A stretch of 64,000 nucleotides of DNA from Armatimonadota bacterium (GCA_037444405.1 JBBIML010000011.1:1-64000), one strand, 5' to 3'. Positions 56,938-62,421 are shown, counted from the first letter of the stretch. Numbers and translations are program-made. Notes: generated by a model not told the origin, from the sequence alone.

Positions 56938-57672
56938 TCACCATGGTGTGGGCACGCGGCTCGGATCCTCGATCGCCCGTATCTCCGTTTTGATGCCCCA
57001 CTGCTGCAGGTCTTTGACCAGCATTTCGGCTTTTCGGCGTGGCAGGTTGGTCAGAATGACCACGGGCGCACTCTGGAGCAGTTTCTTCACATCGGGTCGG
57101 GTGAGCGTGAGGAACGACTCCAGATGGGCGATGGCTTCTTCTTCCTTCAGGCGTTCCACGCCGAGCAGCACCAGTTCGTAAGGTGTGGGGTCGTCCTGCG
57201 GCAGGGGCATAGAGACCTGTGTTTGTGCGGGGGCGACCACGCTGAACTCGCGCTGGCAATGCTCGCAGATGGCGGTTCGGGCACGGGGTGAGACCTTCTC
57301 GGTGGCGCGGCAGTGGGGGCAGCGCACCGTTACCACCTCCAGCACATGCCCGTTCTCCACCGGCACGAGCCGCCGACAGTGTTCGCAGGTGAAGTCGCTT
57401 TGCGGCGGCGCCACGAACACATTCTCCTTCTGGCAGTAGGGGCAGCTCACGGGATAGGCGGGGATATTGCGCGTTTTATAGAGTGACCAGCCCGCATATG
57501 CCCACGAGCCGAGCCACACCAGCCCGAAACCCCATGAGAAGGAGTGGAACATGCCCCCATAGCGCCAGAACAGCCATGTTAGCAGCAGCATCACCAGCCC
57601 CAGCAAACCATAGATGACGGCTTGCGTGTACTCTTTTTCCACAGCGTCAGAGCGCTTAACTGGCTCTTCCAC
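56938..57672 (-). CDS. Membrane-anchored zinc-ribbon protein with a C-terminal L7/L12-CTD-like domain
   Basis: Two TM helices, four CxxC pairs (CPYC, CEHC, CPHC, CEHC), then VKKLLQSAPVVIL.NL...KAE.L...L; GGGAGG before GTG 57672. Confidence 0.7.
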   Translation of the reverse strand: MEEPVKRSDAVEKEYTQAVIYGLLGLVMLLLTWLFWRYGGMFHSFSWGFGLVWLGSWAYAGWSLYKTRNIPAYPVSCPYCQKENVFVAPPQSDFTCEHCRRLVPVENGHVLEVVTVRCPHCRATEKVSPRARTAICEHCQREFSVVAPAQTQVSMPLPQDDPTPYELVLLGVERLKEEEAIAHLESFLTLTRPDVKKLLQSAPVVILTNLPRRKAEMLVKDLQQWGIKTEIRAIEDPSRVPTPW

Positions 57673-57724
57673 GCTTATCGCCTCCCTGTGGAAAGGGTTC
57701 GACCGACTGCCGCGCGATTCCTGC

Positions 57725-59692
57725 CTATTCCTCCTGACCCTCGTATTTCTCTTTGAGCGCCTGCACGACGGCAGGGTCGGCGAGGGTGGTGGTGTCGCCC
57801 AGCGCACGCCCTTCCGCCACATCGCGCAGCAGGCGACGCATAATCTTGCCACTGCGCGTTTTGGGCAGGTCGGCAGTGAAGATTATATCGTCGGGTCGGG
57901 CAAGCGCGCCGATTTTCGCCACCACATGCTGCTTAAGTTCCTCGCGCAATCGCTCATCGGCGGTGTAGCCCTCTTTGATAATCACGAAGGCAGCCACCGC
58001 CTGGCCCTTGATCTCGTGCGATTTGCCGATGACGGCAGCTTCGGCGACTGCCGGGTGATCCACCAGCGCGCTTTCGATTTCCATCGTGCTGAGGCGATGC
58101 CCCGACACATTGATCACATCGTCCACGCGCCCCAGCAGCCAGAAGTAGCCGTCCTCGTCGCGCTTGGCGCCGTCGCCCGTGAAATAGATGCCGGGGTACC
58201 GGCTCCAGTAGATTTGCTGGAAGCGTTCGGGGTCGCCGTACAGCCCGCGCGTCATCGCCGGCCAGGGGCGCGTCAGCACCAGATAGCCACCCCTGTTCGG
58301 CGGCACCGGGTTGCCCAGCTCATCCAGAATGTCGGGGAACACCCCTGGAAACGGCTTGGTGGCGGAACCGGGCTTGGTCGCCACGATGCCTGGCAGCGGG
58401 GTGATCAGAATCATGCCCGTTTCGGTCTGCCACCAGGTGTCGACAATCGGGCAGCGTCCGCCGCCGATATGCTCGTGGTACCACATCCACGCTTCGGGGT
58501 TGATGAGTTCACCGACGGTGCCCAGCAGGCGCAGACTGCTCAAATCGTGGCGGCGCGGGTACTCTTCGCCCCACTTCATAAAGGCGCGGATGGCAGTCGG
58601 CGCGGTGTACAGAATGTTCACCCGATATTTCTCCACTATCGCCCAGAATCGGTCGCGGTCGGGATAGTCGGGTGCGCCCTCGTAAATCACGCAGGTCACC
58701 CCGTTCGCCAGCGGACCGTACACGATGTAGCTGTGCCCTGTAACCCAGCCCACATCGGCGGTACACCAGAAGATGTCTTCGTCCTTGAGGTCGAAAACCC
58801 ATTTGCTGGTGATGGCGACGCCCACGAGATAGCCGCCTGTGGTGTGCATGATGCCTTTCGGCTTGCCCGTGGAGCCGGAGGTGTAGAGCAGATAGAGCAG
58901 GTCTTCGCTGTCCATCGGCTCTGGCTCGCAGGTGAGCGGCGCGTTCGCCATCAGCTCGTGCCACCAGAGGTCGCGCCCTTCCTGCATCGGCACGGTGTAG
59001 TCGCCACCGATACGCTGATAGACAATCACTTTTTCGATGGAGGGTGTGTTGCGCAGGGCTTCGTCGGCATTGCGCTTGAGCGGCACGATCGAGCCGCGGC
59101 GCCAGCCACCATCGGCGGTGATCAGCACCTTCGCCTGCGCGTCGTTGATGCGGTCAGCGAGGCTCTCCGCGCTGAACCCGCCGAACACCACCGAATGGGG
59201 CGCACCGATTCGCGCACACGCCAGCATTGCAATCACCACTTCGGGGATGAGCGGCAGATAGATACACACACGGTCGCCTTTGCGCACGCCCAGCGCCTTC
59301 AGCACATTGGCAAACTTCTGCACCTCGCGATAGAGGTCGTTGTAGGTCAGCACGCGCTCCTCGCCTGGCTCGCCCTCCCAGATGAGCGCGGCTTTGTTGC
59401 GCCGCCATGTCTTCACATGTCGATCCACGCAGTTGTAGCAGGCGTTCAGCTTGCCGCCGACAAACCACTTCGCATAGGGCGGGTTCCACTCCAGCACCGT
59501 GTGCCATCTCTGATACCAGTCGAGAATCTCGGCGCACTTCGCCCAGAACGCCTCATAGTCGCGCGCCGCCTCTTCATAAATAGCCGCATCGCTGATATTC
59601 GCCTGTCGCACGAACTCTTCCGAAGGCGGGAAGACCCGCTGCTCCTGCAACAACGCCTCAATCGCCATTGTGGTCTGCATCGTCTCCATCAT
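57725..59692 (-). CDS. acs: Acetyl-CoA synthetase (acetate-CoA ligase)
   Basis: [38 protein letters not shown]. Confidence 0.97.
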
Positions 59693-59836
59693 CTCACCTC
59701 ACAGGGGAACGATTCGCCAGCAGGCAGCCCTTTTCCTGCTTTATCTATGCCTCTGGGGGGCGAAACGGGATTTTTCTCCCTCTTGCAGGGAACTCTTGAC
59801 AGAGGTCTGGGGTATAATAGGGGTGAGGTGTTGCAT

Positions 59837-60037
59837 ATGGCAACAAGGAACGCAGTCAAGGAAAAGGTTCGCCTGAACGGCGTCGACTATGAGATCACGC
59901 TGACGCCTGCGACCACGAACGACCCGACCACGCTGAACACGCCGATCACTCCGTCTCAGCCGACCACGCCGCAGGAAGTGGTGCGTCGCGCACCTGCCGT
60001 CACCGAGCTGCCGCGCTGGGAGGACGGTATCGGCTAA
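59837..60037 (+). CDS. 66-aa candidate ubiquitin-like modifier ending in Gly
   Basis: TATAAT at 59813 and GAGGTG SD before ATG 59837; MATRNAVKEKVRLNGVDYEITL...VTELPRWEDGIG*; first gene of an E2/JAB-E1 operon. Confidence 0.75.
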   Translation: MATRNAVKEKVRLNGVDYEITLTPATTNDPTTLNTPITPSQPTTPQEVVRRAPAVTELPRWEDGIG

Positions 60038-60067
60038 GCCCTGGATCGCTGTTGCGGGGATGACACC

Positions 60068-60517
60068 ATGAACGCACGCCTGCAGCGGATCGCCTACGAG
60101 GCGGCGCTTGCTGCGACGCACTACTCGCAGACGAAGCAAGCCTCCTATGACGACGAGGACGGGGAGTGGGTCATTATTCACGACTTTCCGCTCCCCCGCG
60201 GCTACAACTACACCACCACCGATGTGCTGATTCTGCTGCCGCGTCACTACCCCCAGACCCCGCCTGACTGGTTCTATGTGGATTACAACCTGCGCTTAGC
60301 GAACGGGCAGCGTCCGCCCCATGTGTTCTATGGCGACACCTCCTATGACCCCAATCGGGGTCAGTTCCGCGAGGCGCCGCCCGCGCTGAAGGGCTGGACC
60401 GCCTGCTGCCTGCACATCCATGAGTGGCGCCCTGCAGCGAACCCGCTGGCAGGGCATTCCCTGCTGAGTGTGTGCGAACTCATTAAGAAGGCGTTTGAAC
60501 GCTGGCGACGCGGGTAG
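60068..60517 (+). CDS. Prokaryotic E2/UBC-fold conjugating enzyme (resembles Prok-E2 family E)
   Basis: WVIIHDFPLPRGY...VLILLPRHYPQTPPDWFY...W..CCLH...WRP pattern. Confidence 0.8.
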   Translation: MNARLQRIAYEAALAATHYSQTKQASYDDEDGEWVIIHDFPLPRGYNYTTTDVLILLPRHYPQTPPDWFYVDYNLRLANGQRPPHVFYGDTSYDPNRGQFREAPPALKGWTACCLHIHEWRPAANPLAGHSLLSVCELIKKAFERWRRG

Positions 60518-60520
60518 GGA

Positions 60521-62008
60521 GTGGAGCCGTTGCAAGCTCTGTGTGGCGAGGTACGCATCACGCGCACGCTCTGGACGCGCCTCACCGAAGCGCTTCTCGC
60601 TGACCGCTGTGTCGAGACGAAGTGCTTCATGCTGTGTCGCACGCTGGAGCTGCCAGGGCGAGCGGTGTTCCTTGTGCGCGAGCTGGTGGAGGTGCCGCCG
60701 GACGCCTACGAGGAGCGCTCCGCCAACCGCGTCATCACCCGCCCGGAGTTCGTGCATACCTTGCTGACGCGCTGCGAAGCGGAGGGCTGGTCGCTGCTGG
60801 AAGCCCACTCCCATCCGTGGACGCCCCGACCGCGCTTCTCCTCGATTGACCACCAGAGCGACTATCAGAAGTTCCGCGTCACCGAGGTGCTATCGCCCCC
60901 GTTTCGGCACGGCACGCTGGTGTTCGGCTCCGACATGGGCTTCGACGGGCACATGTGGGACTATGCGAACCAGCAGGTGGTGCCGATTGAGCGTATTCGC
61001 ATCGTGGGGCTGCCCTGCGAGACGCGCTATGCGACCGACCTCGCGCCGCCGGAGCTGGACAAAGCCCAGCGGGAGCTGTACGACCGTCAGGTACGCGCGC
61101 TCGGTGTGGAGGGTCAGGCGCTGTTGAGCCACCTGCGCGTGGCGATTGTGGGCGCGGGCGGGCTTGGCTCCCAGATTGCGCAGGCGCTCACCCTGCTCGG
61201 CGTCGGACATCTGACGCTGATCGACCCCGACCGACTGGAGCTGAGCAATCTGAACCGCATCGTGGGCGCCACCTGGTATCGCGCGATTCGGCGATGGCGC
61301 AAGGTGAAAGCGCTCGCGCTCTGGTTCAACCGCGCTCGCAGCCCCGAATGGCGCACCATCACGCCCCTGCCCGCCGATGCGCGCTCGCCTGAACTGCTGA
61401 CCACCCTGCTCGAAAGCGATATGCTGATCGGCGCGGTGGACAGCGCGACCGTGCGCCAGTATCTGAACCTGCTGGCGGTGTGCGCATTAATCCCCTATCT
61501 GGACGCGGGTGTCGGTATACGCGCGGAGGCGGGACGCATCGCGCAGGGCGGCGGACAGGTGCAGCTCATCCTGCCGGGCGAGACCGCCTGCCTCAGCTGT
61601 GTCGGGCATCTGGTGCGCCAGAGCGTGGAAGAACAGCTCACCCCTGAACAGCGTGCCATGTCGATCCAGCATGGCTACATTCAGGGCGAGCGGATACCCA
61701 ACCCGCAGGTGGTGTTCCTGAACGGCGTCGTGGCAAACCTGCTGGTGTGGGAGTTCGTGAAGCTGACCACGGGTTGCCTGCCCGCGCAGCCGTATGTCTA
61801 TTACGACCTGGTGGCACAGCAGGCGTTCCCTGCCGAAGCCGAACGCAATCCGAACTGCTTCCTCTGTTCCTATGAGGCAGGTAGCCTGCTGGCAACCGGG
61901 CTGGACGGCATCAATGGCTACCTGAAGCCGCCCCGCCAGAAGGCGCCGCCCGTGCCACGATCCCGAAGCGAATCTCCATCCCCTGACACGGAGGAGAGAC
62001 CCGCATGA
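60521..62008 (+). CDS. JAB/JAMM peptidase - E1 (ThiF-family adenylyltransferase) fusion
   Basis: Glu32 plus HSH-x8-S-x2-D (96-110); YDRQ, VGAGGLGS, IDPD..E.SNLNR, AVDS, two CxxC pairs (357/360, 446/449). Confidence 0.9.
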   Translation: MEPLQALCGEVRITRTLWTRLTEALLADRCVETKCFMLCRTLELPGRAVFLVRELVEVPPDAYEERSANRVITRPEFVHTLLTRCEAEGWSLLEAHSHPWTPRPRFSSIDHQSDYQKFRVTEVLSPPFRHGTLVFGSDMGFDGHMWDYANQQVVPIERIRIVGLPCETRYATDLAPPELDKAQRELYDRQVRALGVEGQALLSHLRVAIVGAGGLGSQIAQALTLLGVGHLTLIDPDRLELSNLNRIVGATWYRAIRRWRKVKALALWFNRARSPEWRTITPLPADARSPELLTTLLESDMLIGAVDSATVRQYLNLLAVCALIPYLDAGVGIRAEAGRIAQGGGQVQLILPGETACLSCVGHLVRQSVEEQLTPEQRAMSIQHGYIQGERIPNPQVVFLNGVVANLLVWEFVKLTTGCLPAQPYVYYDLVAQQAFPAEAERNPNCFLCSYEAGSLLATGLDGINGYLKPPRQKAPPVPRSRSESPSPDTEERPA

Positions 62009-62421
62009 AGCCAATCCCGGAAAATCGTCGTTGGGTCGAGCAGGGCAAACCGAATCAGTCGCCTCAGCGCATATCGAACGAGTCGATTATAGAGATCGAT
62101 CTTCTTGCTGATGAACTGCTCGCCCTGTTGACGGAGCAACAGGGGCAGGTGCTGGAAGCGGGTGCGCCACTGCTCTTTGCTCGCTATGAGGGCACATGTC
62201 CTGCCTGTCTGCAACCGATTCAACGGGGCGCGCTGATCACGCGCCACGCTCGAAGCGGACGCTGGGTGCATGTGGACTGCCTGAACGCTCCCGTTCAGCA
62301 CAGCATTCTTGCCCGCTATGAAGGCTTCTGCCGCATCTGCCGCCAGACGATCGCCGTCGGCGAACCCATCACCCGCGACACCAACCGCGGCTGGGTTCAC
62401 CTGCGCTGTGTGCAGGGTTGA
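62005..62421 (+). CDS. Tandem zinc-finger protein (two C-x2-C-x19/20-H-x2-C units)
   Basis: ARYEGTCPAC...WVHVDC and ARYEGFCRIC...WVHLRC; ATGA overlap with the JAB-E1 stop. Confidence 0.75.
   Translation: MKPIPENRRWVEQGKPNQSPQRISNESIIEIDLLADELLALLTEQQGQVLEAGAPLLFARYEGTCPACLQPIQRGALITRHARSGRWVHVDCLNAPVQHSILARYEGFCRICRQTIAVGEPITRDTNRGWVHLRCVQG

Follow-up and report, generated by a model that had tools for sequence, protein, structure and literature searches.

A Probable Variant of the Bub Conjugation Pathway With a Short, Atypical Candidate Modifier in the Armatimonadota

Introduction

Can an enzyme cascade of the ubiquitin type serve a tag in which no ubiquitin fold is recognizable? The question is raised by an operon of four tightly packed genes, all on the + strand at positions 59837-62421 (2.6 kb in total), in a stretch of 64,000 nucleotides (nt) from an Armatimonadota bacterium of the Fimbriimonadales (GCA_037444405.1, JBBIML010000011.1:1-64000); this whole stretch is called the window below. 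The genes encode a small protein of 66 amino acids (aa), a protein resembling ubiquitin-conjugating (E2) enzymes, a JAB/JAMM peptidase fused to a domain resembling ubiquitin-activating (E1) enzymes (JAB-E1), and a protein with two zinc fingers. We consider the operon to be a diverged Bub (6E) conjugation system in which the 66-aa protein is the modifier, and place the probability of this reading at roughly 0.72.

Bub pathways were described in 2024 by Ye, Gong, Chambers and Corbett (preprint PMC11601596). According to the part of the preprint available here, Bub proteins conjugate a ubiquitin-like protein (Ubl), BubCD cleaves the Ubl after a conserved Gly, and the crossover-loop Tyr370 and the E2 residue Ser333 (with His335 and Asp299) are needed for conjugation. 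The same text has all Bub operons carrying BubE (DUF6527) and describes the E2 Ser as invariant. Its catalogue was built from DUF6527-containing operons, so relatives that have no DUF6527 gene fall outside it.

JAB-E1 and Its Relation to BubCD

In a phmmer search of the Protein Data Bank (PDB), the best match of JAB-E1 was Citrobacter BubCD (9ea4_A, E 9.6e-24), with residues 12-425 aligned on chain positions 10-408 and the JAMM Glu, His, His and Asp in register; the next match was MoeB (E 1.4e-16). Pfam finds the ThiF domain at E 2.9e-36, and the JAMM motif reads E32, H96-S-H98-P-x7-S107-x2-D110, with all of these residues invariant in 14 sequences. Across the 14 JAB-E1 homologues, which are 63-97% identical, the GAGGLG loop (211-216), N245/R246, D307 and Tyr386 do not vary either, and the GYIQG segment that holds Tyr386 aligns with the GYITG tyrosine segment of BubCD. 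An intact JAMM motif fused to a ThiF/E1 domain of the Tyr type had been proposed in an earlier reading made from the DNA alone (hereafter the sequence-only reading), and both parts of that proposal are borne out. The PADLOC search it recommended, like NCBIfam, matched only the generic ThiF part.

Four further residues, Cys357, Cys360, Cys446 and Cys449, are invariant in the 14 homologues and probably form a structural zinc site. The first two, a CxxC, are the sole cysteines in the E1 crossover loop; they pair with C446/C449 and are read as structural, by analogy with BilD in the available part of its description.

An E2 Family in Which Cys and Ser Alternate

The second gene product belongs to the Pfam family Prok-E2_E (PF14462; E 4.2e-14; 52.8 bits, cut-off 25), and its best and only PDB match is Citrobacter BubB (9eae_C, E 2.1e-6), in agreement with the UBC fold previously assigned to 60068-60517. 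The segment GWT(A/G)CCLHI is invariant in 19 E2s from the Fimbriimonadales; four of five more distant homologues have Ser aligned with Cys114 and keep the x-His that comes next. In the family alignment, His116 and Asp67 are conserved.

Among 1.84 billion representatives searched with a profile, 837 matched at E <=1e-3. The alignment examined here has 182 rows, namely the window protein, 33 close homologues and 148 new representatives among the best 150. At the Cys114 column, 110 rows have Cys, 59 have Ser, three have some other residue and 10 are gapped, so that Cys or Ser fills 169 of the 172 rows that cover the position; His116 is present in 139 of 182. On a FastTree phylogeny of 142 E2 domains (87 Cys, 55 Ser), with close relatives thinned to seven and the nucleophile column omitted, the Cys/Ser label switches 10 times, or at least five times when only well-supported branches are counted, and the window's clade lies within a supported group of 11 Cys and five Ser rows; the tree rests on few columns and has many unresolved forks. 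Judged from these repeated switches, the column is the nucleophile position, and Cys and Ser have been interchangeable in its evolution. Equivalence of Cys114 to S333 of BubB is drawn from the S-x-H pattern rather than from a residue-level structural alignment. The earlier label of a Cys-type E2 is thus correct as to the residue, but Cys at this site is not rare and is common in the wider Prok-E2_E family. A tblastn search of plasmids with a Cys-type Ubl-E2 fusion (P0143) gave no match.

The same alignments bear on whether the enzymes work at all. Iyer, Burroughs and Aravind predicted the E2/RWD-like domains of their operon type 6e to be inactive, as they lack the Cys, in the part of the paper available here (Iyer et al., 2006; PMC1779556), and in one genome of the phylum the E2 gene is broken, so the E2 and E1 might be inactive or decayed remnants beside a small open reading frame (ORF) conserved as a leader or regulator. 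This is very improbable: the catalytic residues of JAMM domain, E1 and E2 are invariant in 14-24 homologues whose identity falls to 63% for JAB-E1 and spans 38-99% for E2, the window E2 does have a Cys, and Bub E2s later proved active, as the accessible text of the preprint reports (PMC11601596).

The Small Protein and Its Variable C-Terminus

The small gene is kept as a protein in all 18 related loci that were fetched. Third codon positions vary most in its alignment (39, 32 and 57 of 61 aligned columns at positions 1, 2 and 3), and the protein falls into 53 database clusters, one of which is labeled by its source as Thermoflexus hugenholtzii, a cultured species from outside the phylum. On these grounds the 66-aa ORF is, as far as comparison of sequences can say, a real gene. 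Translation confirms the ending EDGIG given for it earlier. It is atypical as a modifier, as had also been stated: scans with Pfam, NCBIfam and PADLOC matched no family, a search of the ESM Atlas gave no usable match, and the predicted structure consists of a hairpin only.

Conservation is concentrated at the two ends. An N-terminal stretch, (V/L)xEKVx(L/I/V)N(G/D)xx(Y/F)EIxL, is followed by a Pro/Thr-rich middle in which T-x-N is kept, and then by P53-x4-L58-P59-x-W61-E-D63-G64. Beyond Gly64 the sequence varies. Each of the 68 distinct C-termini of the first sets continues for one to seven residues (two residues in 40 of them), starting with Ala in 31 and with Gly in 27; in two homologues from another Armatimonadota family the genes stop exactly after WEDG. 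A variable tail after the Gly, together with homologues that have none, is, at the level of the alignment, what one expects of a modifier precursor whose processing exposes a C-terminal Gly. A similar ending is found in fusions of a Ubl to an E2 of the same family, where (A/I/L/P)-P-(R/K/x)-(F/Y/W)-x-x-G closes the Ubl part immediately ahead of the E2 domain (for example APRFRWG, IPRYEAG, PPRFVRG and RPKFKRG), and LPRWEDG of the small protein fits this series.

The rest of the molecule offers less to compare. With an alignment of 16 sequences, AlphaFold2 (AF2) produced only a β-hairpin (residues 7-22), at low confidence (predicted local distance difference test, pLDDT, 65.9; predicted template modeling score 0.21). 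Residues 23-46 are Pro or Thr at 15 of 24 positions (62%), so that a β-grasp helix would have no space there. When hhalign compared the small family's profile to 21 β-grasp Ubl domains, the local probability was 4.7% (P 0.0086 over 13 hairpin columns), and a global comparison with the tails aligned was also weak (P 0.011). The hairpin may be a relic of Ubl strands β1-β2. Going by the model, the small protein quite probably has no β-grasp fold, with an appreciable chance of the contrary, and a full β-grasp is unlikely.

A short, low-complexity protein of no recognized fold could instead be a precursor peptide activated by the E1, as in the MccB/microcin C pathway, or a sulfur carrier like ThiS or MoaD, in either case not conjugated to proteins. 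E1-like enzymes do activate peptide C-termini, and MccB is among the PDB matches of the E1 domain (E 1.9e-5). This is nonetheless improbable. An E2 of a conjugating family always follows the small gene, a JAMM peptidase is fused to the E1, and the best match of the E1 is by far BubCD rather than MccB, ThiF or MoeB. The small protein does not end in Gly-Gly, the Pfam scan found no rhodanese domain, and the host genome has one other ThiF-family gene, a canonical one (279 bits) on another contig. Genes for thiamine, molybdopterin, transport or immunity are not consistently present among 61 flanking ORFs in 10 related loci, where a single TENA/THI-4 gene was seen.

Predicted Binding of the Tail in the E1 Active Site

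Binding of the small protein by the E1 is supported by a complex model. Two copies of the E1 domain (residues 172-470) were modeled with residues 1-64 of the small protein, both chains being given as alignments. The models scored 0.78, 0.76 and 0.71, and the best of three controls 0.02; the mark used for this score is reached by 116 of 157 solved complexes and by two of 215 mismatched pairs. The runs share at least 50% of their contacts, and pLDDT of the small protein is about 45. The confident interface comprises residues 52-56 and 58-64 of the small protein and, on the E1 side, 211 and 213-216 in the nucleotide loop, 305-307, 329-332, 342-346 and others. Gly64 contacts G214 of the GxGxxG loop and residues 330-331, Asp63 contacts D307, and Trp61 packs onto 330-332 and 343-346. 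The modeled pose supports a Ubl-like tail placed in the E1 active site ready for adenylation.

A Fourth Protein With a Conserved N-Terminal Peptide

In the alignment of the fourth protein, residues 2-10 read KPIPxNRRW, with P3, I4, P5, N7, R9 and W10 invariant, as are the ligands of finger 2. A variable, partly acidic linker separates this peptide from two repeats of ARYxGxCxxCxxxIxxGxxI(T)...W(V/I)HxxC, so that the tandem zinc finger seen in the sequence-only reading holds up. AF2 gives residues 56-138 a pLDDT of about 86-94 and folds them into two knuckle-hairpin-helix fingers. Homologues with a single CxxC...HxxC unit exist (loci L031 and L032), which argues for two independent fingers rather than a cross-brace.

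No family can be named for this protein. Its Pfam matches are sub-threshold (DUF2175, 25.0 bits against 25.1; zf-ANAPC11, 23.0 against 25) and do not support identification as a RING-like E3. A Foldseek search with the model gave a mixture of RING, PARP, PHD, C1 and LIM domains, none significant (best E 0.011), a VIA structure search gave at best a C1 domain at Z 4.5, also not significant, and the ESM Atlas returned only the protein's own Armatimonadota cluster. The gene is lineage-specific: among 56 clusters, those with names are all from the Armatimonadota or Fimbriimonadales.

The part tied to the system appears to be the N-terminal peptide, which occurs in 28 distinct forms. At locus L066, where the E2 is of the Ser type and 52% identical, the gene after JAB-E1 begins MAQIPINRRW and encodes a membrane helix and PYRG repeats; it keeps the peptide and has no fingers. 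The C-terminus of JAB-E1 carries (K/R)PIP(A/T)PR in 10 of 14 proteins, and PP(V/A)PR in the window's genus. From the likeness of the two motifs we suspect that KPIPxNRRW and the JAB-E1 C-tail are docking peptides for one E2 surface. The genes themselves are not fused, as a stop codon lies between them in L022 and L028. Speculatively, the fourth protein could be an adaptor, an E3-like specificity factor or a dedicated substrate.

Operon Layout and Candidate Promoter

Features of the operon are collected in Table 1. Four co-oriented genes with gaps of 30 and 3 nt and then an ATGA overlap had been described earlier, and the ORF list and the window sequence agree. G+C content is 0.60-0.66 across the operon and 0.61-0.65 in its flanks, which upholds the host-like composition also reported. 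The TATAAT box noted in front of the operon is present, but it is not a validated promoter. A scan with the sigma-70 consensus called no promoter on the + strand (and one terminator-like site, inside the JAB-E1 gene). The spacing between the hexamer and a TTGACA at 59796-59801 is just 11 nt. By eye, 12 of the 19 upstream regions (the window and 18 loci) have an exact TATAAT at 20-45 nt from the start, and four more have a version with one mismatch, each behind a GGAAC/GAAAC-TTT element. The shared GGAAC-like element and TATAAT-like hexamer suggest a candidate promoter of non-standard spacing.

Table 1. Features of the operon, with positions counted from the first nucleotide of the window
Feature	Position	Strand	Remarks
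Putative promoter	GGAAC 59789-59793; TATAAT 59813-59818	+	Found by eye; TATAAT 18 nt before the ATG of the small gene
Small protein, candidate modifier precursor, 66 aa	59837-60037 (stop 60035-60037)	+	ATG start; MATRN...LPRWEDGIG; predicted hairpin, residues 7-22
Small protein, continued	Gly64 codon 60026-60028		Pro/Thr-rich 23-46; tail P53..L58-P59-x-W61-x-D63-G64; apparently dispensable Ile-Gly
E2, UBC-like, Prok-E2_E/BubB family, 149 aa	60068-60517	+	ATG start; presumed nucleophile Cys114 (60407-60409); His116, Asp67
JAB/JAMM peptidase-E1 fusion, 495 aa	60521-62008	+	GTG start
JAMM domain of JAB-E1	~residues 1-165		E32, H96, H98, S107, D110
E1 adenylation domain	~residues 172-470		GAGGLG 211-216, N245-R246, D307
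E1 crossover-loop Tyr386	61676-61678	+	GYIQG segment
Pro-rich C-tail of JAB-E1	61931-62005 (residues 470-495)		P477, P479, R480 invariant
Fourth protein, 138 aa	62005-62421	+	ATG start; N-terminal MKPIPENRRW at 62005-62034; low-confidence linker, helix 28-45
Zinc finger 1 of fourth protein	~62170-62289		C65/C68/H91/C94; treble-clef-like (AF2)
Zinc finger 2 of fourth protein	~62302-62418		C109/C112/H132/C135; treble-clef-like (AF2)

An 807-aa frame on the + strand (57614-60037), antisense to the acetyl-CoA synthetase gene, shares the frame of the small gene, which lies at its end, and is spurious. Such antisense open frames are typical of GC-rich DNA and could mislead an ORF caller on the start of the small gene. 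Neighbors of the operon in the window, named by reading their translations, are an acetyl-CoA synthetase-like gene and a D-aminoacylase-like gene. Between the former and a SIS-like gene, a 304-aa ORF on the − strand (56938-57852) has a hydrophobic stretch and four CxxC pairs (CPYC, CEHC, CPHC, CEHC), and its product may be a membrane-anchored zinc-ribbon protein.

Distribution, Linkage and an Antiphage Alternative

Within the window's family, 21 of 24 other genomes have the E2; none of 16 genomes from a further four families in that order does. Of 200 additional genomes, sampled evenly over the phylum, six have a match; two of the six (family f12) have a tail-less small gene, a Ser-type E2 and JAB-E1. 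The full order of small gene, E2, JAB-E1 and zinc-finger gene is present in 13 of the 18 loci first fetched, in 18 of 32 loci on contigs from one genome per species, and in 24 of 49 metagenome loci found through the small protein; these sets overlap in organisms and are not independent, and contig ends truncate many of the other loci. The E2 gene directly follows the small gene in 18/18, 31/32 and 48/49 loci. One exception, in an Omnitrophota genome (L067), has an ordinary 81-aa Ubl ending KFKRG, a Ser-type E2 and separate JAB and E1 genes; in the other, only 237 nt are left after the small ORF. Linkage of the small and zinc-finger genes with E2 and JAB-E1, on which the sequence-only reading had staked its proposal, is thus conserved in other genomes.

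Modules that have no E1 fall into two classes, small-E2 and small-E2-ZnF. In five genomes (G009, G010, G012, G017 and G022) they are second copies beside a full operon. G018, too, has a second copy, but assembly of its other E2 locus is incomplete. For the module of G006, the partner is a lone JAB-E1 on another contig.

Several variant loci deserve mention in their own right. On a GC-rich metagenome contig, a second ThiF-like gene that has no JAB domain lies directly upstream of the small gene (L116:2-1000, + strand), after which come a Cys-type E2 and JAB-E1. In another family of the phylum, an E2 gene is broken by an internal TAG and has WLHSHQH as its nucleophile segment (G159:C46:11545-11953, L123/L128); no JAB-E1 follows, and it looks like a decaying copy. 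In another Armatimonadota genome, a 972-aa RtcB (tRNA-splicing ligase) with an intein splicing domain adjoins the operon (L060:530-3445, − strand).

The same chemistry could serve defense: upon infection, the modifier would be joined to a protein of the phage or of the host, a role already suggested for Bub, Bil and type II CBASS. The closest characterized systems are thought to be immune or stress-related, and 39% of 544 Bub operons lie beside CapW or CapH+CapP according to the available part of the preprint (PMC11601596). Within the present family, the neighborhoods of the cassette differ between genera (synteny with the window's neighbors is kept in only one of 32 loci, from the same genus), components occur as separable modules, and at a small number of loci Uma2, restriction-modification, PIN or RHS genes lie no more than a few kb away. 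Set against this, the operon is present in 21 of the 24 family genomes sampled, often with a second small-E2 module, unlike sporadic defense islands, and its composition matches that of the host. The 61 flanking ORFs in the 10 loci are mostly metabolic or housekeeping, with no CapW/BrxR- or CapH/CapP-like regulator among them. PADLOC models matched nothing beyond the generic ThiF part, and 17 pattern matches in viral contigs included no confirmed relative. The Bub authors themselves, in the text available, found no phage protection (PMC11601596). An antiphage role is therefore unlikely here, though far from negligible, and the chromosomal, family-wide distribution favors a resident regulatory or stress function in the cell over a mobile antiphage island.

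Relation to Described Systems

The nearest described systems are the Type I Bub operons, which resemble this operon in several ways. Gene order is Ubl-E2-JAB-E1-X in both. JAB-E1 has the same JAB/JAMM-E1 domain order, a full-length match, the JAMM residues and the crossover-loop tyrosine, and the E2 belongs to the same Pfam family as BubB with its His and Asp conserved. The modifier gene lies upstream of the E2 gene, and its product has a P-R-aromatic-x-x-G tail with residues past the Gly that need removal. The activate-conjugate-deconjugate module proposed in the sequence-only reading is borne out by this homology, with BubCD and BubB as the best solved relatives. Unlike Type I Bub, the window operon has the PIPxNRRW zinc-finger protein in last position instead of BubE, its E1 keeps four probable zinc-binding Cys that are not in the aligned BubCD segment, and it is chromosomal and family-wide rather than on mobile elements, with no CapW or CapH/CapP nearby.

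Unfused multiubiquitin, E2/UBC and ThiF (JAB-E1) genes follow one another, as in the window, in the plasmid Bub operons of Mesorhizobium sp. 131-2-5 and Deinococcus sp. AB2017081, whose JAB-E1s are the nearest plasmid-borne relatives (identity to the window protein 32-34%, across 85-87% of that protein). These operons differ in having a multiubiquitin Ubl, a phosphotransferase gene and a DUF6527 gene, and the E2 of the Deinococcus operon is of the Ser type. The 'phosphotransferase' of about 480-495 aa is encoded between JAB-E1 and DUF6527 (L118:4804-6288 and L119:4781-6229), and falls outside the three-gene description of Type I Bub in the available part of the preprint.

Operon type 6e, as described in the accessible part of Iyer et al. 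(2006; PMC1779556), combines a polyUbl, an inactive E2/RWD-like protein, JAB-E1 and a metal-binding protein Y. The four-part layout, the stand-alone E2-like gene between Ubl and JAB-E1 genes, and the terminal gene for a small Cys/His metal-binding protein are shared with the window. The signatures of that last protein differ, however (C-x3-C-x35-38-H-x2-C in 6e; C-x2-C-x22-H-x2-C and C-x2-C-x19-H-x2-C in the window), the 6e E2-like domain has no Cys, and the 6e Ubl consists of one to three β-grasp domains, all according to the same text.

Two other E1-E2 systems were considered and set aside. Type II CBASS combines a CD-NTase gene with an E2-E1 fusion (Cap2) and a stand-alone JAB (Cap3). The window operon is arranged differently, with its E2 on a gene of its own and its JAB joined to the E1, and the PADLOC E1-E2 models match only the ThiF part, at about 174-370. 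Beside the operon, the ORF list shows no obvious gene resembling a nucleotidyltransferase, although the ORFs there were not scanned for families. Bil (BilABCD), whose E1 joins an inactive and an active adenylation domain to a Cys domain and whose JAB is separate, as far as its available description goes, does not fit an E1 that has a single adenylation domain and matches BubCD best, then MoeB.

A small, largely disordered tag that is processed and then attached through its C-terminus is also known from actinobacteria, in the form of Pup. Pup is ligated by the glutamine-synthetase-like PafA and not by an E1-E2 cascade, and has no sequence relation to the small protein.

The sequence-only reading had set the operon apart from known systems by an atypical modifier, a Cys-type E2 beside a Tyr-type E1, and a fourth zinc-finger gene. 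All three differences are real, but the operon is a variant of Bub/6E, a type that the reading itself had named. By the published definition, as given in the available text, the operon is neither Type I nor Type II Bub, though in all likelihood it works like Bub. A literature search, with most subscription journals and the supplementary operon tables of the two Bub preprints outside its reach, returned no description of this variant.

Proposed Pathway and Weighing of the Evidence

A working scheme can be put together from these parts. The operon would be transcribed from a promoter before the small gene. The JAMM domain would trim the precursor after Gly64, removing Ile-Gly, a step suggested by the BubCD precedent, the universal variable tail and the natural tail-less homologues. 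The E1 domain would bind the LPRWEDG tail and adenylate Gly64, as in the complex model, and Tyr386 would take the modifier as an aryl ester, in line with its alignment to Tyr370 of BubCD. Going by the Cys/Ser column, the modifier would then pass to Cys114 of the E2 as a thioester, where described Bub uses Ser and an oxyester, and the E2 would transfer it to an amine on the target. More speculatively, the fourth protein would dock through its PIPxNRRW peptide and recognize through its zinc fingers. The JAMM domain may also remove the tag.

A number of observations weigh against assigning the operon to a diverged Bub system with the 66-aa protein as modifier. Three are differences from Type I Bub. 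The window modifier is unfused and predicted as a hairpin only, with no β-grasp or Multi_ubiq signature (Multi_ubiq had no match in the small protein or in the host genome); the E2 nucleophile is Cys where described Bub has Ser; and DUF6527/BubE was not found in the operon. For the last, PF20137 had no match in the four proteins at E up to 1, and its best match genome-wide, on another contig, reached 16.7 bits against a cut-off of 23.6 in a search that also responds in seven of 14 control genomes. As to the small protein, its homology to Ubls is not claimed, as the hhalign results are too weak; the complex score may come partly from likeness to solved E1-Ubl complexes; and only the last 13 residues are confidently placed, in a partner whose own fold is uncertain. 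Among the enzymes, Prok-JAB is below the Pfam cut-off (E 0.068, 13.5 bits against 25), and the adjacent C113 and C114 are both conserved, C114 being presumed the nucleophile from its alignment column. The fourth protein is absent or different in more distant relatives. Lastly, a run search for the window stretch listed four DNA runs of one study and no RNA run.

A more specific version of the favored assignment is tentative, and doubtful when its parts are taken jointly. In it, the E1-E2 cascade would have been retargeted to a largely disordered, Pro/Thr-rich tag of about 60 residues with no ubiquitin fold, recognized almost solely by a 13-residue C-terminal peptide. Tagging would be resident and vertically inherited in a thermophilic Armatimonadota family, several modifier/E2 pairs would share one Tyr-type E1, and the chemistry would be mixed, from Tyr aryl ester to Cys thioester. 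The fourth protein would act as an E3-like adaptor whose PIPxNRRW docking peptide mimics the E1 tail.

Implications

The operon suggests that the Bub enzyme core exists where there is no BubE, and the Ser/Cys flips among close E2 relatives offer a natural series for comparing oxyester with thioester transfer. If a modifier shrunk to a hairpin and a tail peptide is confirmed, a β-grasp fold is not required for E1/E2-type conjugation. Four genes in 2.6 kb and a modifier homologue labeled Thermoflexus hugenholtzii make biochemical tests practical. In the Armatimonadota family itself, the system can be a stable, family-wide feature of the chromosome to which further modifier/E2 modules are added, a hint that its role may extend past phage defense.

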